From the NCBI GenBank assembly GCA_964649545.1, contig CAZYPY010000007.1:4698-68697 (forward strand): a DNA stretch of 64,000 nucleotides, written 5' to 3'. Origin of the DNA: an uncultured Microthrixaceae bacterium (GTDB taxonomy: Bacteria; Actinomycetota; Acidimicrobiia; Acidimicrobiales; DATDAH01). The position numbers were made by a program, and so were the translations under genes. Shown in pieces: positions 53 to 51,046 of this stretch. Position 1 is the stretch's first letter; the number at the start of each line of letters is the position of its first letter. The notes below the pieces were generated by a model that made no database searches, was not told the origin of the DNA, and was given only the letters and a program-made list of their open reading frames with translations.

Positions 53-541
53 TCACGTGACGCCGCCGCCCGTCGCCGCTGCGAGCGGTCCGGGGCCCGG
101 CGCCCACGCGATCCCGTGGACGCCGCCCTCGATCGGCCCGACCGAGCCGAGGACGTCACCGTCGTCGGTCAGGGTGAGGAGCGACCACGCCGTGCCGACC
201 GCGAGGAGGTCGCCGGTCGGGGACCAGGTCAACGCGGTGATCGGCGCCTCGACGGCGACGGTGCGATGGGCGTCGCCGGTCACGATGGCGACGTCGCCCG
301 TATCCGTGCCCACCGCCAGGCGGGTTCCCGTGGGCGACCACGCCAGTGCCGAGACGGCGCCGCGACACCTCGTCGGCGGGGTGGTCGGCCGGAGGGCCTC
401 GCCGTCGACGAGGGCCACCTCCCCGTTGACGGCGCCGACCGCGATCAGCGCCCCGTCCGGGCGCCACTGGAGGTGCTCGACGGCGTCGCTCAGAACCTGC
501 GCTCTAGACACGGCAGGCGAGCAACGATGCGGCCAGGTCAT
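53..541 (-). CDS. WD40/beta-propeller repeat protein; stops at an in-frame TGA (53-55) but the frame stays open to the window edge
   Basis: Repeats such as VEHLQWRPDGALIAVG, VSALAWSPTGTRLAVG, ITALTWSPTGDLLAVG and VHGIAWAPG are WD40-type. Start is ATG 541 or GTG 511. It follows the COG0523-like gene on the same strand. Confidence 0.7.
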   Translation of the reverse strand: MTWPHRCSPAVSRAQVLSDAVEHLQWRPDGALIAVGAVNGEVALVDGEALRPTTPPTRCRGAVSALAWSPTGTRLAVGTDTGDVAIVTGDAHRTVAVEAPITALTWSPTGDLLAVGTAWSLLTLTDDGDVLGSVGPIEGGVHGIAWAPGPGPLAAATGGGVT

Positions 542-1499
542 CCAGTCCGAGGTCTCGACCGGCGATGCGCAACCTCGAGTGGCGGGGCGCTCCGTGCGCC
601 CACGGCGGACCCGGCTCGTGGCGGACGGCCGTTCGACAGCCACTCAGGTGGAGGGGACCGTCGCGGTCGGCGAGCGCGAGGACGGCCTCGATGCGCAGCA
701 GACGCGCTCCGGCTGCTCCGTGCAGTGCGTGGAGCCACTCCTCGAGTCGGTCGGGGTCGAGCAGACCGTCGACCGCGAAGGTCATCGAGCCCGTCCCGCT
801 CCGACCACCGGCCGGATGGGCGCCCGGCGCGCCGTACGGCGTGTGGAGCCGGGCGAGTCGTGAGGGGGTCGACGCGGGTGACCACGACGCGAGCTCGAGC
901 ACGTCGGCGAGCCGCGGACTCGTCGACGCGTCGACCCAGGCGAGCGGGTTGAGGCGTTGGATGGCATCGGCGACCCTCTGGATCCCGTGGGGCGTGAGGA
1001 GGGCACCTCGGGAGATCCACACAGCGTCGGCGAGCATGGCCGCGTCCGCGGGTCGATCGGACGGCCATGGCGACGCGGTGCTGGCGGCTGCCGTCGTCGC
1101 CGCGGGGCCGTCGATGGCCAGGAGCACCGCGTTGAGCCGGACGAGACGCGCCAAGTCGGGGTCGTCGAGCAGGGTGACGACGGGTGTCGCCGGATCGGTG
1201 CCGGGGAGCTCGAGCACGACGATGTGGGCGGGCGGGCGCCGACGTCGGGCGATCCGACCGAGGGTGTCCACCAGGTCGATGCGTTGCGCACAGCAGGCGC
1301 AGCCCTGCGTGCGGAAGCCGATCGACTCGTGGGTCGTCACCGTCTCCAGACCGGCGAACGTGGTCTGCGGCGCCCCTCCGGGCACGACGACCACGACCTC
1401 GCCGCCGGCGCTGGCCGCGAGGTGGCGGGCGAGCTCGTCGGCCCCGCTGTCGGTCCAGCCGTGGACGAAGGTGACGGCCGGTCGTCGCGGCTCGGTCAC
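504..1499 (-). CDS. COG0523/CobW-family protein with degenerate P-loop (putative GTPase-dead zinc metallochaperone paralogue)
   Basis: GCACC (CxCC) motif, ELPG at the ExxG position and a CobW_C-like C-terminus (LDPDRLEEWLHAL...LLRIEAVL). The Walker A position reads GWTDSGADEL instead of GxxGxGKT. The GTG start overlaps the rpmE2 stop (GTGA). Confidence 0.75.
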   Translation of the reverse strand: MTEPRRPAVTFVHGWTDSGADELARHLAASAGGEVVVVVPGGAPQTTFAGLETVTTHESIGFRTQGCACCAQRIDLVDTLGRIARRRRPPAHIVVLELPGTDPATPVVTLLDDPDLARLVRLNAVLLAIDGPAATTAAASTASPWPSDRPADAAMLADAVWISRGALLTPHGIQRVADAIQRLNPLAWVDASTSPRLADVLELASWSPASTPSRLARLHTPYGAPGAHPAGGRSGTGSMTFAVDGLLDPDRLEEWLHALHGAAGARLLRIEAVLALADRDGPLHLSGCRTAVRHEPGPPWAHGAPRHSRLRIAGRDLGLDDLAASLLACRV

Positions 1500-1744
1500 G
1501 TGCGCCGTTTGCCGTAGCGACGCTCGAAGCGGTCGACTCGACCCGCGGTGTCCACGATCTTCATCTTCCCGGTGAAGAACGGGTGGCTGGCGGCGCTGAT
1601 GTCGACGGTCACGAGCGGATACTCGACGCCGTCGATCTCGCAGGTCCGGTCGGTGGTGACCGTGGATCGCGTCAGGTAGTCGACCCCCGCGCTCGTGTCG
1701 CGGAACACCACCGGACGGTACGCAGGGTGGATCCCCTCTTTCAC
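1496..1744 (-). CDS. rpmE2: 50S ribosomal protein L31 type B (zinc-independent paralogue)
   Basis: [16 protein letters not shown]...[31 protein letters not shown]; no CxC/CxxC zinc ribbon. Confidence 0.95.
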
Positions 1745-1905
1745 CGCTCCTCCTTGAACGCGACGTGGCGGCGGACCTTGGGGTCGTACTTGCGCAGCTC
1801 CAGACGCTCGCGCTGGTTCTGCTTGTTCTTGGTGGTGACGTAGGTGAACCCCGTGCCGGCGGTGGAGCGGAGCTTCACCAGCACGCGCTTGTCGCTCTTG
1901 GCCAT
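1741..1905 (-). CDS. rpmG: 50S ribosomal protein L33, zinc-free type (54 aa; absent from the ORF track)
   Basis: Hand translation: [54 protein letters not shown], with no Cys. Its ATG overlaps the L28 stop (TGATG) and its stop overlaps the L31 start (GTGA). Confidence 0.95.
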
Positions 1906-2141
1906 CAGACCTTGATCCCTCGTGCTCGGATGGCCGCGACCACCGATTCGATGCCGTTGCGGTTCACGGTCTTGATGGCACGCGTCGACAGGGTCAACCG
2001 CACCCAGCGCCGTTCGGAGGGCAGCCAGAAGCGCTGGGTCTGGATGTTGGGGTTGAACCGGCGGCGGGTGGTTCGGTGCGAGTGCGACACGTGGTTGCCG
2101 AACCCGGGTTTCGCTCCCGTCAGCATGCAGATCCGTGACAC
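1905..2141 (-). CDS. rpmB: 50S ribosomal protein L28, zinc-free type
   Basis: [62 protein letters not shown] at 2141 with GAAGGAGGG RBS upstream; only one Cys. Confidence 0.95.
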
Positions 2142-2156: not shown

Positions 2157-2175
2157 GGAATGAGAATCATTCCTG
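2157..2175. promoter_or_regulatory. Putative Zur box between divergent rpmB and cobW
   Basis: Perfect inverted repeat GGAATGA-GAA-TCATTCC (2157-2173). The core TGAGAATCATT resembles the actinobacterial Zur consensus TGAAAATnATTTTCA, and both flanking units are typical Zur targets. Confidence 0.75.
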
Positions 2176-2226
2176 CTAGTGTGGCTGGTCTCGCCCGCAC
2201 CTGCAACTCGCCTCCGGAGGCCGACC

Positions 2227-3459
2227 GTGGATCCCTTGACCGACCAGCGACTGCCCGTCACCGTCCTGTCGGGGTTCCTCGGGGCCGGCAAGACCACGCT
2301 GCTGAACCAGGTGCTGGCGAACCGTGAAGGCCGGCGGGTGGCGGTGATCGTCAACGACATGAGTGAGGTCAACATCGACGCGTCCTTGGTGGCAGGCGGC
2401 TCGGCCGCCCTGCACCGCACGGACGAGCGCCTGGTGGAGATGACCAACGGGTGCATCTGCTGCACGTTGCGCGACGACCTCCTCGAGCAGGTCGCCGAGC
2501 TCGCCCGGGAGCAGCGGTTCGACTACCTGCTCATCGAGTCGACCGGCATCAGCGAGCCGATGCCGGTGGCCGCGACGTTCCTCTTCGAAGACGTCGACGG
2601 TGCCAGCCTGGCCTCGGTGGCCCGACTGGACACGATGGTGACGGTGGTGGACGCCTCCCGATTCCTGGACCATTTCGACGAACTCGTCGATCTGGCCGAG
2701 CTCGGGGTGGCCCGCGACGACGAGGACGATCGCAGCGTGGTCGAGCTCCTGGTCGACCAGGTGGAGTTCGCAGACGTGCTCGTGGTGTCCAAGCCCGATC
2801 TCGTCGACGAGGACGACCTCGCCCGGGTGGTCGGCCTCGTCCGCCACCTCAACCCGCGCGCCCGGGTCCAGATCGTCGAGCGAGGCGAGCTGCCCCTCTG
2901 CGAGCTGTTGGACACGGGGCGGTTCGATCCCGACGAGGCCTCACTCGCGCCCGGCTGGGTGCGTGAGCTCAACGGCGAGCACGTCCCCGAGACCGACGAG
3001 TACGGCATCGGGTCGTTCGTCTACCGGCAGCGCTGGCCGTTCCACCCGGAGCGGCTCGTGGAGGCGCTCGAGACCGACTGGCCCGGCGTCCTGCGCTCGA
3101 AGGGCTTCCTCTGGCTCGCGACGCGCCCCGATGTCCAAGCCCTCTGGAGCCAGGCCGGTCTGTCGGTGCAGCTCGAGCCGTTGGCTCCCTGGTTCGCGTC
3201 GCTGCCGGAGTCCGAATGGGATCTCGACCCTGACGAGCGGGCCGAGCTCGCCGAGCGCTGGGACCCGCTGGTGGGGGATCGCCAGACCGAGCTCGTCTTC
3301 ATCGGGATCGACATGGACGAGGCGGACCTGCGGGCCCGGCTCGACCCCTGTGTCCTCACCGCCGCCGAGGTCGAGGCCGGGATGGAAGCCTGGGCCACCT
3401 ACCCCGACCCCCTGCCGGCGTGGGACCTGCTCTGCGACCTCGACGACGACGAGGGGTGA
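2227..3459 (+). CDS. COG0523 G3E-family GTPase, zinc metallochaperone (YciC/ZigA-like)
   Basis: GFLGAGKTT Walker A, GCICC, ESTG, SKPD and CobW_C (PFHPERL...[11 protein letters not shown]). GTG 2227 follows a GGAGG RBS. Confidence 0.93.
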
Positions 3460-3474
3460 GGTCAGGCGCTCCGA

Positions 3475-3765
3475 TCAGTGCTCGTCCCAGTGGCCGTCGT
3501 GGGCGGCGTGGCGGTGGCCGTCGTGGAGGTAGTCGACGTGATCGCCATGGGCCACGGACTCGTGGCCGCAGTCGGGGCCGTGGGTGTGGTCGTGGCCCGC
3601 GTGCTCGAGGTGGGGCAGGTCGCACTCGTCCCAGTGGCCGGCGTGCTCGTGGTGGGCGTGGCCCTCGTGGATGTAGTCCACGTGGCCCTCGTGGTCGACG
3701 GCGGCGTGGCCGCAGCCGGCACCGTGGGTGTGGGTGTGGTCGGCGTGGGTCGTGCAGGTGCTCAC
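3475..3765 (-). CDS. Small His-rich, internally duplicated putative metal-binding protein (96 aa)
   Basis: 27 His and 4 Cys. Two copies of HxHGxxCGHxxVxHxxHVDYxHxGHxHxxHxGHWDE. The start overlaps the stop of the upstream ArsR gene; an AGAGGA RBS is present. Confidence 0.85.
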   Translation of the reverse strand: MSTCTTHADHTHTHGAGCGHAAVDHEGHVDYIHEGHAHHEHAGHWDECDLPHLEHAGHDHTHGPDCGHESVAHGDHVDYLHDGHRHAAHDGHWDEH

Positions 3766-4073
3766 CGGTGGCTCCTCTCGTTGGCGTGGGCGATGGCGTC
3801 GAGCGCGATGTGGACGACGTGCTCGTCGGCGATCGAGTAGGCGATCTCTCGGCCCCGACGGCGTCCCGCCAGCACCCCGGCCGTGCGTAGGACCCGGAGG
3901 TGCTGCGACACGAGGGGCTGGGCGACACCGAGGGACTCGACGAGGTCGTGGACGCAGCGCTCACCGTCCTGGACCTCGAGCACGATGGCCAGCCGGAGGG
4001 GATGGGCGAACGCCTTCAGGAGCTCGCTGGCCGCCTCGAGACCGGTCACATCAACAGATGCTAATAGATGCAT
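3762..4073 (-). CDS. smtB: ArsR/SmtB-family repressor with alpha5 zinc site (SmtB/CzrA/Rv2358-like)
   Basis: wHTH (AFAHPLRLAIV...SQHLRVLR) and C-terminal DEH-x10-H-x2-E (DEHVVHIALDAIAHANE). Start is ATG 4073 or GTG 4049. Confidence 0.85.
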   Translation of the reverse strand: MHLLASVDVTGLEAASELLKAFAHPLRLAIVLEVQDGERCVHDLVESLGVAQPLVSQHLRVLRTAGVLAGRRRGREIAYSIADEHVVHIALDAIAHANERSHR

Positions 4074-4079
4074 GCATGG
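4050..4079. promoter_or_regulatory. Possible SmtB operator / AT-rich promoter
   Basis: An AT-rich patch in a GC-rich background containing ATGCATGCAT and ATGCATC-TATTA-GCAT, at the smtB start. Confidence 0.4.
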
Positions 4080-4274
4080 TCGACCAACCCGGCCGCGATG
4101 GTCGCCGTCGCCGCGCGTGCTCGTACTGGACGGGGGTGGCCTCGCCCACGAGCGGGGGCCGCACCCAGCGCCACCATGACGCCGACAGGCGCGAGTCGCC
4201 TGAGGCGGGCCCGATCCGCGGAGGGCGAACGGTCGCGGGATCGCCAGCTGGCGCCGCTCCCCCCGTGGGTCGGC

Positions 4275-5114
4275 TCAGGTCGGGGCCGGGACGCCGGCGT
4301 CCGACCAGAACGAGTCCAGCACGGCGGCGAGCGCCGTCGGTGCCTCGACCGGGGCCAAGTGGCGGGACCCCTCGATGACGACCACGCCGTCGCCGGCGCC
4401 GTCCAGGCGCCGAGCGTCCTCGGCGGTCCAGAGCGGGTCGTCGTCGCCCACGACGAGCAGCGTGGGGCACGTCGCGGCGGCGGCTGTCCATCGCAGGTCG
4501 GGACGCTCGAGCATCGCCGCGCGCAGCGATCGTTGCAGCGCCCGCCGGGCCGGCCGGCGCAGGGCCGTCGTCACCAGCGCCACGGCCTCGGGGTCGTGGT
4601 CACGGACGGAGGCCGTGAGCAGCGTGTCGACCACCTTGGCGGCGACCGACCGCGGGCCGAGGAGCGGGTACAGCGCGACCAGCGGCGCCACCTTCCGGCG
4701 TTGCTCCGCCGGCAGCGCCACCAGGGGCGCGGCGATGGCGGTGAGGGTGGTCACCCGCTCGGGGTCGCGTGCGGCCACCAGGTGGCCGACGTGACCGCCC
4801 CAGGCGTTGCCCACCCAGTCGACCGCCGGGATCCCGACGGCGTCGAGCACCTCGACGGCCGCGGCGGCGCAGTCGTCGAGGGAGAACCGGTGGCCCGGAC
4901 CGGGGCTGGCGCCGTGGCCGGGGCCGTCGACCACCAGCCACCGGCGCTCGCCGGGGAAGGCGGCGACGAGCCGGTCCCACGAGTGGCCGTCCACGAAGAG
5001 GCTGTGCCACAGGAGCGTGGGTGGTCCCGCGCCCACGGAGCGGACGTGCAGGGGGCCCACCCGGGTGGGCACGAGCTCCGCGACGGCGGCGGGGAGGGGA
5101 CGGGTCGCGGTCAC
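4275..5114 (-). CDS. Alpha/beta hydrolase fold protein with Ala at the nucleophile elbow
   Basis: LLWHSLF, VDGPGHGAS, VDWVGNAWGG, GDDDP and GSRHL. The GTG start overlaps the SRPBCC stop. Confidence 0.85.
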   Translation of the reverse strand: MTATRPLPAAVAELVPTRVGPLHVRSVGAGPPTLLWHSLFVDGHSWDRLVAAFPGERRWLVVDGPGHGASPGPGHRFSLDDCAAAAVEVLDAVGIPAVDWVGNAWGGHVGHLVAARDPERVTTLTAIAAPLVALPAEQRRKVAPLVALYPLLGPRSVAAKVVDTLLTASVRDHDPEAVALVTTALRRPARRALQRSLRAAMLERPDLRWTAAAATCPTLLVVGDDDPLWTAEDARRLDGAGDGVVVIEGSRHLAPVEAPTALAAVLDSFWSDAGVPAPT

Positions 5115-5566
5115 GCCGTCACCGCCTCGGGCAGCTGCTCGACGAGCGTGCGGAGGCGCTCGACGTCGCCGGTCAGGTTGCGCGCGAGCATGCGGCCCAG
5201 CAGCGGGGCGAGGATGCGGTTGACGCCCGTCGGCGTGACCTCGAGGTCGAGGCGGACGGCGCAGCGGTCGGGCGCCAGGGCCCGCACCTCCCGTGCGCCG
5301 TGGGCGACGGCACCCTCGGTGGTGCGCCACTCGAAGCGGGCGCCGGGCACGACCAGGGTGACCTCGCCGAGGTTGCGGTACGTGCGTCCGGCCACGACCA
5401 GCACCTCCACCGTGGTCGTCCCGGCACGGACGAGGCCGACGGGGGTCGCGGTCATCTCCTTGACCCCCGTCCGCCAGGACGGATCCTGGGCGTAGTCGGC
5501 GATGACGCGCCACACGTCCTCGGCGGGGGCGGAGATCTCGATCTCGTGCGAGAGGGTGATCGGCAT
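5111..5566 (-). CDS. SRPBCC/polyketide cyclase family protein
   Basis: IEISAPAEDVWRVIADYAQDPSW pattern; GGAGGA RBS before ATG 5566. Confidence 0.85.
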   Translation of the reverse strand: MPITLSHEIEISAPAEDVWRVIADYAQDPSWRTGVKEMTATPVGLVRAGTTTVEVLVVAGRTYRNLGEVTLVVPGARFEWRTTEGAVAHGAREVRALAPDRCAVRLDLEVTPTGVNRILAPLLGRMLARNLTGDVERLRTLVEQLPEAVTA

Positions 5567-5587
5567 GGTGGTTCCTCCTGGATAGGT

Positions 5588-5648
5588 AGTTCGGAACCGA
5601 ATAGTACGGTAGCGAAGATTCGCTGTCAAGATGCTCGACGTCGAAGTA
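5588..5648. promoter_or_regulatory. Three putative MarR operator sites in the divergent intergenic region
   Basis: TTCG-GAAC-CGAA (5590-5601), TACG-GTAG-CGAA (5605-5616) and CTCG-ACGT-CGAA (5634-5645) share a nnCG-N4-CGAA pattern. Confidence 0.5.
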
Positions 5649-5659
5649 CTGTGGCGGCC

Positions 5660-6154
5660 ATGCGGTCCGACGATCCCGTGGCCGGCCTGGTGGCGCAATG
5701 GGCGGCCGAGCGGCCCGACCTCGAACTGGCGCCGATGGCCACCTTCGGCCGACTCGGTCGGCTGCACGCCTACGCCAGCAGGGCCATCGACGAGGTCTTC
5801 GCCCGTCACGGGCTGAGCATCGGCGAGTTCGACGTGCTGGCCGCCCTCCGGCGGGCGGGGGCGCCGTTCACGATGACGCCCACCGCGCTGGCGCGCCTGC
5901 TCATGCTCTCGCCCGCAGGGATGACCAACCGCCTCGACCGGCTCGAGCGGGCCGGTCTCCTCGAGCGCCGCCCCGATCCGGACGACCGCCGCAGTTCGCT
6001 CGTCGTGCTGACCGACCGCGGCCGCGACGTCGTGGACGTCGCCGTCACCGAGCACGTCGCCAACGAGGCGCGCCTGCTCGAGCCCCTGTCGGAACGGGAC
6101 CGGGCCACGCTCGATCGGCTCCTGCAACGGCTCCTGGCCCAGTTCGAGAGCTGA
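5660..6154 (+). CDS. MarR-family regulator (TamR/PecS/UrtR-like)
   Basis: N-terminal QWAAERPDL, GEFDVLAALRRAG, SPAGMTNRLDRLE and DPDDRRS. Confidence 0.9.
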   Translation: MRSDDPVAGLVAQWAAERPDLELAPMATFGRLGRLHAYASRAIDEVFARHGLSIGEFDVLAALRRAGAPFTMTPTALARLLMLSPAGMTNRLDRLERAGLLERRPDPDDRRSSLVVLTDRGRDVVDVAVTEHVANEARLLEPLSERDRATLDRLLQRLLAQFES

Positions 6155-6266
6155 ACCGGGCTGGTCGTCGCCGGCGGGCGCCTCCTCACCACCGACGGCT
6201 CCCGGCGCCTTCCGGAGAGGCGAGCACGACGGCGACCGGCCCACAGAGGTCAGTCGAGACGGGCAT

Positions 6267-6302
6267 CCGTCGAGGGCGCCGCGGTGGCGACGCCCTCGAC
6301 GG
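6267..6302. terminator. GC-rich hairpin between convergent marR and methyltransferase genes
   Basis: 12-bp perfect stem CCGTCGAGGGCG / CGCCCTCGACGG with a 12-nt loop; no U-tract. Confidence 0.5.
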
Positions 6303-7282: not shown

Positions 7283-7309
7283 CGTGAGATCGCGTCTCAC
7301 GACGTGAGC
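7283..7309. promoter_or_regulatory. Inverted/direct repeat, candidate operator of the adjacent STAND regulator
   Basis: CGTGAGA-TCGCG-TCTCACG (7283-7301) plus a third half-site CGTGAG (7303-7308). Confidence 0.5.
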
Positions 7310-10480: not shown

Positions 10481-10771
10481 GTGAACGGTTCAATCACGCT
10501 TGAAGCGATCGCGGCGCGCTTCCGGGCGTTGGGCGACCCGACCCGGCTGCGGGTGGTGGCCGAGCTGACGCTCGGCACCCGGTGCGTGTGCGAGTTGCGC
10601 GACCGCGTCGAGGTGTCCGGTCCCCTGCTGTCCCACCACCTCACCGTGCTGCGTGACGCGGGCCTGGTGACCGCGGAGCGCCGGGGACGTTGGGTCGACT
10701 ACACCCTCACCCGCCAGGGCCGGGATGCCGTCGCCCATCTCGACCTCGATCCCAGCCGGTCGTCTCGATGA
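10481..10771 (+). CDS. arsR: ArsR-family As(III)-responsive repressor
   Basis: FRALGDPTRL, alpha3 CVCEL and SHHLTVLRDAG; ATGA overlap with acr3. Confidence 0.88.
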   Translation: MNGSITLEAIAARFRALGDPTRLRVVAELTLGTRCVCELRDRVEVSGPLLSHHLTVLRDAGLVTAERRGRWVDYTLTRQGRDAVAHLDLDPSRSSR

Positions 10772-50715: not shown

Positions 50716-51046
50716 GGGCGGCCGTCGGCGCGAGGGCGTCGCGCAGGGCGCCGAGGCGCTCCGGCACGATCCGGTACCACGCCCACTTCCCCCGCTTCTC
50801 GCGGGTCAGCAGGCCGGCGTCGACGAGCAGCGAGAGGTGGTGGGACACGGTCGGCTGCGAGCGGCCCACCGGCTCGACCAGGTCGCAGGCGCAGGCCTCG
50901 CCGTCGGACGCCGCGGCCACGAGCGAGAGGAGCCGGAGCCGGGCCGGGTCGGCCAGCACCTTCAGCAGGCCCGCGAGCTCCTCGGCCTGCTGCTCGTCGA
51001 GGACGCCGGCGGTGAGCGGGGCGCAGCACAGCTCGACGGGGTCCAT
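50705..51046 (-). CDS. arsR: ArsR-family repressor with N-terminal CC and CxC
   Basis: ELCCAPL, LADPARLRL, EACACDL and SHHLSLL. Confidence 0.9.
   Translation of the reverse strand: MDPVELCCAPLTAGVLDEQQAEELAGLLKVLADPARLRLLSLVAAASDGEACACDLVEPVGRSQPTVSHHLSLLVDAGLLTREKRGKWAWYRIVPERLGALRDALAPTAALSR

Follow-up and report, generated by a model that had tools for sequence, protein, structure and literature searches.

Two overlapping minus-strand genes lie near the left end of a 64,000-nucleotide stretch of DNA from an uncultured Microthrixaceae bacterium (contig CAZYPY010000007.1, positions 4,698 to 68,697), which we call the window: arsR, which encodes an ArsR/SmtB-type repressor, and hisR, which encodes the small histidine-rich protein that is the main subject of this work. 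The hisR coding sequence (3475..3765, minus strand; GTG start at 3763-3765, stop at 3475-3477), recognized from the list of open reading frames (ORFs), its composition and its homologues, specifies 96 residues without a signal peptide. On translation these include 27 His (28% of the protein), 4 Cys, 12 Asp and 7 Glu, and only C18 and C66 among the four cysteines are invariant in family alignments. The two halves of the protein align without gaps and are identical at 26 of 43 positions (60%; E=4e-15 with compositional adjustment). Repeat 1 (residues 7-48; 3622..3747, minus strand) reads H-x2-H-x-H-x-H-G-x2-C-G-H-x4-H-x2-H-V-D-Y-x-H-x-G-H-x-H-x2-H-x2-H-W-D-E-C, and repeat 2 (residues 55-96; 3478..3603, minus strand) carries this motif again but ends in H-W-D-E-H; both are defined by the internal alignment, the invariant columns of the family and the structural models. 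The longest run of His is two residues, and the pattern is conserved and non-repetitive. Across all window ORFs of at least 60 residues, no other 96-residue stretch holds more than 18 His. The runner-up, a second His-rich stretch near 15.6 kb, was dismissed as an off-frame ORF within a 969-residue gene.

The two genes share the tetranucleotide GTGA (3762..3765, minus strand), in which the arsR stop codon TGA (3762-3764) overlaps the hisR start codon GTG (3763-3765), an arrangement that would couple their translation. An AGGAG ribosome-binding site (3772..3776, minus strand), read from the sequence, lies within the arsR coding sequence, 6 nucleotides 5' of the hisR start. The ORF coordinates of a close relative, locus L053, give an identical 4-bp overlap; its hisR product shares the N-terminus MSTCTTH with that of the window, although its start codon is ATG. 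A preliminary description of this DNA had reported a 96-residue protein with 27 His, 4 Cys and two repeats, overlapping an ArsR gene by 4 bp, and translation, internal alignment and inspection of the junction bear out each of these features.

Spurious ORFs are numerous in high-GC genomes, and the strand opposite hisR is also open, from 3478 to 3840, as would be expected if hisR were a chance ORF, or a low-complexity antisense of a Val/Ala-rich frame, and not a gene. We give this explanation next to no credence, because the conservation data refute it: hundreds of homologues, across phyla and in eukaryotes, keep specific columns of the protein. Moreover, the GC content of hisR by codon position (0.81/0.41/0.96) follows the pattern of a real gene in a genome of 74% GC, the third-position value of 0.96 speaking against chance, and the gene has both a ribosome-binding site and a coupled start.

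The hisR product belongs to a large family of ArsR-associated, two-repeat His-rich proteins that, judged by sequence, is apparently new. A search of a 5.8-billion-protein collection returned 227 homologues at E<=1e-3, with homologue E-values of 1e-34 to 1e-13, and 1.84 billion cluster representatives (50% identity), searched with a profile, yielded 1286 clusters at E<=1e-3, 510 of them at E<=1e-10. The family is encoded in at least 595 GTDB species genomes and on at least 585 metagenome contigs. Among its carriers are Streptomyces, Nocardia, Corynebacterium, Gordonia, Amycolatopsis and Acidimicrobiia, and Myxococcota-type and Gemmatimonadota contigs encode a 115-residue variant. When fifteen diverse members are aligned, 32 columns are invariant; nearly all of these are His, and the others are two Cys, two Asp that precede Tyr, and glycines. 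An alignment of 85 members has 12 invariant and 21 nearly invariant columns. The window protein has the full family signature, namely 95-115 residues in two modules of the form H-x-H-G-x2-C-G-H ... H-(V/I/T)-D-Y-x-(H/V)-x-G-H-x-H ... H-x-D-x-H.

No match to the protein was found among the families of Pfam-A (E<=0.1) or NCBIfam, and a sequence search of the PDB returned no related chain. A tblastn search of plasmids likewise gave no match, although low-complexity filtering could have hidden the query. Our search of the literature found no description of the family; a 2010 in-silico survey of 'metallohistins' in actinobacteria may contain a bare listing of it. The name 'threonine dehydratase', which UniRef and NCBI attach to some homologues (P0016, P0028, P0032, P0038 and P0092), was rejected as an annotation error that has spread between records, since the domain it implies is absent; other homologues are named 'hypothetical protein'.

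Structural prediction points to a defined architecture for the module. From the 85-sequence alignment, AlphaFold2 produced a moderate model of the window protein (pLDDT 72.6, pTM 0.46) with a four-stranded beta meander in each repeat, and a confident model of the 115-residue relative P0081 (pLDDT 87.5, pTM 0.79) has the same topology in both repeats. Foldseek searches of the PDB with the two models found nothing significant (best E=2.3 for the window protein and 5.0 for P0081, TM<=0.31), and the predicted fold is thus apparently new. In these models, each module would carry about 12-13 conserved His, Cys, Asp or Glu side chains, giving roughly 26 candidate ligands per protein, and therefore enough for an estimated six or so tetrahedral sites. 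The earlier suggestion that the repeat reflects a defined, conserved fold and not low complexity is upheld by the invariant columns of the 15 diverse sequences and by the quality of the P0081 model.

The partner gene, arsR (3762..4049, minus strand), encodes a repressor with matches to PF01022 (E=4.4e-14) and to NF033788 (89.3 bits, where the cut-off is 55). Its longest ORF reaches an ATG at 4071-4073 and would specify 103 residues, but the true start is likely the GTG at 4047-4049, giving 95 residues, as placed by alignment with the ArsR protein of L053, its closest relative (76% identical), and with eleven other partner ArsR proteins. Thus, the ORF drawn to 4073 in the preliminary description exists but probably begins translation further in, and 24 nucleotides previously counted as coding therefore belong to the AT-rich promoter/operator island discussed below. 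The PF01022 match marks a winged helix-turn-helix DNA-binding region (residues 25-67 of the 103-residue ORF; 3873..4001, minus strand). Downstream of it, the codons at 3777..3827 (minus strand) specify D-E-H-x10-H-A-N-E (D83-E-H85-x10-H96-A-N-E99, numbered from the ATG at 4073), an intact example of the DxH-x10-H-x2-E motif already noted at first reading. DxHx10Hx2(H/E) is the canonical alpha5 motif of Zn(II) sensors (PMC11672702). The alpha5 Asp and both His are invariant in 12 of 12 aligned hisR-linked ArsR proteins, which span three phyla, and the ArsR proteins of loci L018 and L005 additionally carry His-rich C-terminal tails. Two further ArsR-family paralogues in the window, at 10499-10738 (plus strand) and 50753-50968 (minus strand), are 40-44% identical to the hisR-linked protein.

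A sequence search of the PDB places 8qkf (2e-30) closest to the window repressor, followed by NmtR (1.5e-15) and SmtB (2.1e-11). NmtR, a Ni/Co sensor, is thus its closest characterised solved homologue, and the metal selectivity of an alpha5 site is unreadable from sequence alone. Nickel, moreover, is known to be stored by His-rich proteins such as Hpn. These points would fit a nickel/cobalt (or cadmium/copper) system in which hisR encodes an Hpn-like Ni/Co store under an NmtR/KmtR-like sensor. We consider such a system unlikely. First, the window repressor has Glu as its fourth alpha5 ligand, as does SmtB, whereas NmtR and CzrA have His at this position. Second, the genes that adjoin arsR-hisR here and in relatives are zinc genes, including those for ZigA, ribosomal paralogues lacking zinc-binding cysteines, ZnuABC-type transporters and Fur-family proteins. 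Finally, neither the window nor the relatives' loci showed any urease, hydrogenase, NikABCDE or Nur-type context.

Between the likely arsR start and the upstream sequence lies a 29-nucleotide AT-rich island, CATGCATGCATCTATTAGCATCTGTTGAT (4050..4078, minus strand), which we interpret as a putative promoter and candidate ArsR operator. A -10-like TAGCAT at 4058-4063 is positioned for a leaderless mRNA, and the arsR-hisR transcript is probably leaderless, to judge from this spacing. The element ATTAGCAT is equally far from the arsR start in the window and in L053, and also occurs upstream of arsR in L092. ArsR/SmtB proteins with alpha5 Zn(II) sites characteristically bind an imperfect 12-2-12 inverted repeat at their own promoters. 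At the position corresponding to the island, L136 has the clear inverted repeat ATGAACAG-N8-CTGTTCAT, and L027 and about twenty other relatives have ATAAACA-N10-TGTTTAT; the window itself has one good half-site (CTGTTGATG) and otherwise only short palindromes. Within the 64-kb window the operator-like sequence at 4050-4078 is unique, and hisR is therefore the sole visible effector of the sensor here. A scan of 3300-4400 for generic sigma-70 promoters and terminators gave no match. Nor was a Fur-type box found near arsR, as the window search gave only the site at 2158-2172 described below and an unrelated weak site at 7285.

Genes of zinc economy form an island at the left end of the window. 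Convergent with hisR, its stop codon 15 nucleotides from that of hisR (3459-3475), lies a gene for a ZigA-type COG0523 zinc metallochaperone GTPase (2179..3459, plus strand), which matches PF02492 and PF07683 and, at 577.6 bits, just misses the cut-off of 600 for NF038288. No terminator was detected between the two genes, and either transcript may run antisense into the other gene. Divergent from zigA is an operon (504..2141, minus strand) for ribosomal paralogues L28 (1905-2141), L33 (1741-1905) and L31 type B (1496-1744), whose protein sequences lack CxxC pairs and which are classed as zinc-independent, and for a COG0523-like protein (504-1499). The latter has VTFVHGWTDSGADE in place of the Walker A motif GxxGxGKT but keeps the GCACC metal motif and the CobW_C domain, and it may be a pseudo-GTPase within the family of zinc chaperones. 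In actinobacteria, genes for zinc-independent ribosomal paralogues and for COG0523 proteins are hallmarks of Zur regulons, and the canonical actinobacterial Zur box used here for comparison is TGAAAATGATTTTCA (PMC2823685). The palindrome GAATGAGAATCATTC (2158..2172, unstranded), which is unique in the window and lies between the L28-paralogue operon and zigA, is a candidate Fur-family (Zur) box whose half-site spacing differs from that of the canonical box. A tblastn search found no Fur-family gene in the window, and the operon consists of arsR and hisR only, with no zur downstream. With ZigA, the L28/L33/L31 paralogues and the second COG0523-like protein as neighbours in the window, and with znu and Fur-family genes beside hisR and a ZnuB fusion in relatives, zinc is the best-supported metal for the system; starvation for zinc presumably induces zigA, and an excess of it hisR.

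To place the window operon in a wider context, we compared gene neighbourhoods in relatives, using the 80 best matches of each of two scans, one of genomes and one of metagenomes. Both sets are phylogenetically clustered, and the fractions that follow therefore apply to these sets and should not be read as unbiased frequencies. Among the metagenome loci with enough flanking sequence, an ArsR gene lies directly upstream of hisR on the same strand in 38 of 63, and a Fur-family gene directly downstream in 18 of 53. Such pairing is rarer in the genome loci, which are mostly from Streptomyces and Nocardia isolates (ArsR upstream in 8 of 79, Fur family downstream in 6 of 76). The ArsR-upstream arrangement recurs in Acidimicrobiia, Myxococcota-type and Gemmatimonadota contigs. 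In the distant clade of 115-residue proteins it is present in three of the five loci examined (L089, L090 and L091). The last of these has the order P1B heavy-metal ATPase (TIGR01525, 480 bits), ArsR, hisR, ZnuC, ZnuB, TonB receptor and Nramp, and its ATPase-ArsR-hisR segment is a classic metal-excess layout. The preliminary description's coupling of a sensor to a His-rich gene thus holds across phyla and is even fixed in the form of gene fusions. In a further relative, Nannocystis punicea (L004, 3679-5357), hisR and a phytochelatin-synthase-like gene (PF05023) point away from each other.

Many metagenome loci, as well as L007, L027, L059 and L070, share a recurrent layout in which znuB-znuB-znuC-znuA is divergent from arsR-hisR and a Fur-family gene; partial forms are L066, which lacks a Fur-family match, L062, in which ArsR is not intact, and L017, from which it is absent. 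The best solved relatives of the Fur-family neighbour are PerR (1.6e-11) and Mycobacterium tuberculosis FurB/Zur (5.6e-9); it is zur-like by context only, the sequence alone being insufficient for assignment as Zur. An early remark that smtB is followed by zur in M. tuberculosis proves directly relevant, as many relatives have hisR exactly between an smtB-like gene and a Fur-family, zur-like gene. A 7-1-7 palindrome, for example TGAGAATGAGTCTCA, occurs in the divergent intergenic regions of L007, L027, L059, L070 and L094, and this example shares 12 of 15 positions with the Zur box of S. coelicolor (PMC2823685).

Loci in which hisR stands apart from arsR have upstream elements of their own. 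In Streptomyces (for example L006, L020 and L033), GCCACGCAA-N21-TTCGCGTGGC abuts a -10 sequence of CAGCCT or TAGCCT. In Nocardia (for example L009, L032 and L040), the element is GATGCGCAnnTGnTAATGTGT, which resembles an arsR-promoter element of metagenome locus L149. In Corynebacterium (L030, L054, L076 and L079), two or three direct repeats of TGAAAAC (some TGAAAAT or TGAAAAA) are spaced by about 11-17 nucleotides; they resemble Zur-box half-sites, but are direct rather than inverted. A search upstream of stand-alone hisR genes for the canonical actinobacterial Zur box (TGAAAANNNTTTTCA) gave only scattered, weak and unconvincing matches, at -120 to -135 in a few Streptomyces and Kitasatospora loci.

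The zinc-economy genes and Fur-type palindromes raise the alternative that hisR encodes a zinc reserve or delivery factor for starvation, working with COG0523 GTPases and expressed upon release of Zur. Genes for COG0523 proteins or for L31B/L33 flank hisR in 5 of 80 genome loci and 10 of 80 metagenome loci, in addition to the window, and L017, which lacks ArsR, has a Fur-box-like palindrome about 100 nucleotides upstream of hisR. Nevertheless, hisR in the window is convergent with zigA and lies behind an ArsR gene without a Fur-type box, the conserved partner of the family is a derepressor-type sensor, and the Fur-type boxes of the divergent znuA intergenic regions may serve znuA only. A starvation role strikes us as quite improbable.

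The source organism is common in wastewater and activated-sludge metagenomes, and three metatranscriptome contigs run across the arsR/hisR junction (X26, 3415-3947; X27, 3672-4119; X25, 3470-4033), consistent with transcription of both genes on one mRNA; these RNA runs are represented by assembled contigs only, from which neither transcript ends nor zinc dependence can be read. One wastewater metatranscriptome contig of run X25 joins 2839 to 3470 and skips 630 nucleotides of zigA, which may reflect either a strain whose ZigA is truncated or an error of assembly.

We propose that arsR-hisR is a two-gene, translationally coupled operon whose first gene encodes an alpha5 (Asp/His/His/Glu) repressor and whose second encodes the effector output of that sensor. 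Metal-free ArsR would sit on the AT-rich operator at 4050-4078, overlapping its own leaderless promoter, and thereby repress its own synthesis. A rise in cytosolic Zn(II) would load the alpha5 site, release the repressor and allow expression of both genes. The 96-residue protein, with its two modules of about 43 residues, would then take up several Zn(II) ions in the cytosol and so provide a buffer or sink for zinc that is kinetically labile and resists oxidation. This proposal builds on what is observed at the locus and in the family: the anatomy of the operon, conservation of the protein, pairing with ArsR, zinc-related neighbours, and absence of a family or fold match. From the established behaviour of ArsR/SmtB sensors we infer metal binding, zinc selectivity and zinc induction; the stoichiometry suggested by the ligand count and the role of the island as operator have a similar, conditional standing. 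Taken as a whole, zinc-induced derepression of a cytosolic zinc sink seems to us about evenly poised between right and wrong.

Several observations weigh against it. The smtB-zur operon of M. smegmatis is co-regulated by SmtB and Zur, and its expression is nearly independent of zinc (PMC7174638). Zur-box-like palindromes also lie upstream in several arsR-hisR-zur loci, and zinc induction of hisR is therefore not guaranteed. By sequence, the closest characterised homologue of the repressor senses Ni/Co, and the window's candidate operator lacks clean palindromic symmetry. Elsewhere, in Streptomyces, Nocardia and Corynebacterium, hisR stands alone behind its lineage-specific, conserved upstream elements. 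The RNA libraries hold contigs of 26-113 kb, and the contigs across the junction could therefore stem from DNA carry-over. Finally, His-rich sites usually bind zinc less tightly than thiolate clusters.

Fusion proteins suggest a different role, in which the module would be a zinc-sensing or regulatory element, or a metallochaperone for sensors, that exchanges zinc with ArsR, Zur or ZnuBC and sets their thresholds when free, and that serves as a sensor domain when fused. The module occurs at the C-terminus of ArsR proteins in P0127, P0137 and P0158. P0127 and P0137 represent clusters of 15 and 12 sequences, which include full-length fusions from several samples; on two contigs the fusion was confirmed to be a single gene. 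Alpha5 ligands are lost from the ArsR part of P0158 and of a fusion in Kibdelosporangium aridum (L052), two independent cases that look as if the module had taken over sensing. In the Kibdelosporangium locus (5275-6276), the fusion gene is followed by a free-standing copy of hisR with its own AT-rich upstream element. Another fusion places the module at the C-terminus of a ZnuB-type ABC-3 permease, encoded after a ZnuC gene, and recalls the trans-inhibition domains of ABC importers. A full two-repeat module is also present in P0141 (from Physarum polycephalum), P0157, P0165, P0222, P0225, P0261 and P0264 (from Fabomonas); in most of these proteins, including that of Physarum, it lies C-terminal to C2H2 zinc fingers. 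Physarum and Fabomonas are the only eukaryotic sources identified, the other proteins being eukaryote-like. The C2H2-module proteins may represent a new type of transcription factor that responds to zinc.

Fusions to ArsR proteins with degenerate alpha5 sites, to ZnuB and to amoebozoan C2H2 factors therefore keep a zinc-sensing role in view, being as compatible with a sensing or regulatory module as with bulk sequestration. The position of hisR between both zinc sensors in many loci points the same way. Other evidence fits this role poorly. In most Streptomyces, Nocardia and Corynebacterium genomes hisR is alone and far from regulators; some versions are exported or are lipoproteins, with signal peptides or lipoboxes (P0168, P0202 and P0209); the roughly 26 conserved ligands far exceed the needs of a sensor; and the alpha5 sites of P0127 and P0137 are intact. 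On balance, we view a regulatory module as possible but doubtful. The same hesitant judgement applies to its broadest form, in which the family would constitute a new zinc-binding and zinc-sensing domain of bacteria and eukaryotes that, when free, tunes the set-points of SmtB-like and Zur-like proteins and, when fused, acts as the sensor in ArsR proteins, in trans-inhibition of ZnuB and in amoebozoan C2H2 factors.

If hisR encodes a zinc sink, as we prefer to think, the family would help to fill a gap. Little is understood of how bacteria buffer zinc in the cytosol. Outside cyanobacteria and pseudomonads, true metallothioneins are rare, and we know of no zinc sink in most actinobacteria. Because of its presence in hundreds of species, its position between both master zinc sensors, its apparently new fold and its approximately 26 conserved ligands, the family would be a strong candidate for the missing actinobacterial zinc sink. 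It would also supply a new oxidation-resistant scaffold for metal binding and, if the fusions are what they seem, a zinc-sensing domain of a new class that extends to eukaryotes.

The closest functional parallels are the SmtB-SmtA system of Synechococcus and the BxmR-Bxa1-BmtA system of Oscillatoria, in which an ArsR/SmtB zinc sensor controls a bacterial metallothionein. As in SmtB-SmtA, an alpha5 sensor is genetically coupled to a small, ligand-rich protein that is apparently its sole local effector, and the ATPase-ArsR-hisR order of L091 resembles bxa1/bxmR/bmtA. SmtA and BmtA, however, are Cys-rich proteins with a Zn4Cys9His2 cluster (PF02069), whereas the hisR product, with 27 His and 4 Cys, matches no Pfam family and has a predicted all-beta, two-repeat fold. 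In addition, smtA is divergent from smtB, whereas hisR lies downstream of arsR on the same strand with a 4-bp overlap. Known metallothioneins have approximately 9 Cys and 2 His in about 55 residues; the ligands of the hisR product are not dominated by Cys, and no metallothionein family model matches it. Hence, of the initial proposal of a His-based metallothionein analogue, the coupling to a sensor survives, but the protein is not a metallothionein by sequence or fold. By this analogy, arsR-hisR is most likely a functional counterpart of SmtB-SmtA that is unrelated in sequence and fold.

A second parallel is regulatory. The mycobacterial smtB-zur operons (Rv2358-Rv2359, MSMEG_4486-87) and znr-zur of C. 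glutamicum place an ArsR zinc sensor and then Zur in one operon near znuABC (PMC7174638, PMC2823685). The arsR-hisR-zur loci of relatives have the arrangement of smtB-zur and znr-zur with hisR inserted, a form seen in Acidimicrobiia-type relatives, whereas the window operon, unlike these, is without zur.

Among His-rich proteins, Hpn and Hpn-like (Hpn-2) of Helicobacter pylori are small, cytosolic, very rich in His and poor in Cys, are regulated in response to metal and function in storage or detoxification. Hpn, which is found only in Helicobacter, combines runs of His with short repeats of low complexity, is regarded as largely unstructured or oligomeric, binds Ni and is controlled by NikR. 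By contrast, the ligands of the hisR product fall in a strict pattern on predicted beta strands, its context is zinc and its family spans several phyla; it has no His run longer than two, no pattern of EEGCC-type repeats, no relative in the PDB and no nickel context. The term 'metallohistins' covers His-rich analogues of metallothioneins, such as AgNt84 of plants, and denotes a compositional category rather than a homologous family; Schmidt et al. reportedly predicted such proteins in actinobacteria in silico in 2010. The hisR family shares with metallohistins the concept of a small, His-based metal-binding protein, as the preliminary description had proposed. Like the His-rich tails and loops of ZnuA, ZIP and CDF transporters, COG0523 proteins and ArsR C-termini, it ties a His-rich element to zinc transporters and regulators. 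Those tails and loops are short, poorly conserved and disordered, however, whereas the hisR module forms a domain in its own right, 95-115 residues long and conserved in its pattern. Thus, the scheme of a metal sensor paired with a metal-binding effector is a known one; what is new in arsR-hisR is an undescribed protein family with an apparently new fold and an unusually tight link to the core regulators of zinc.

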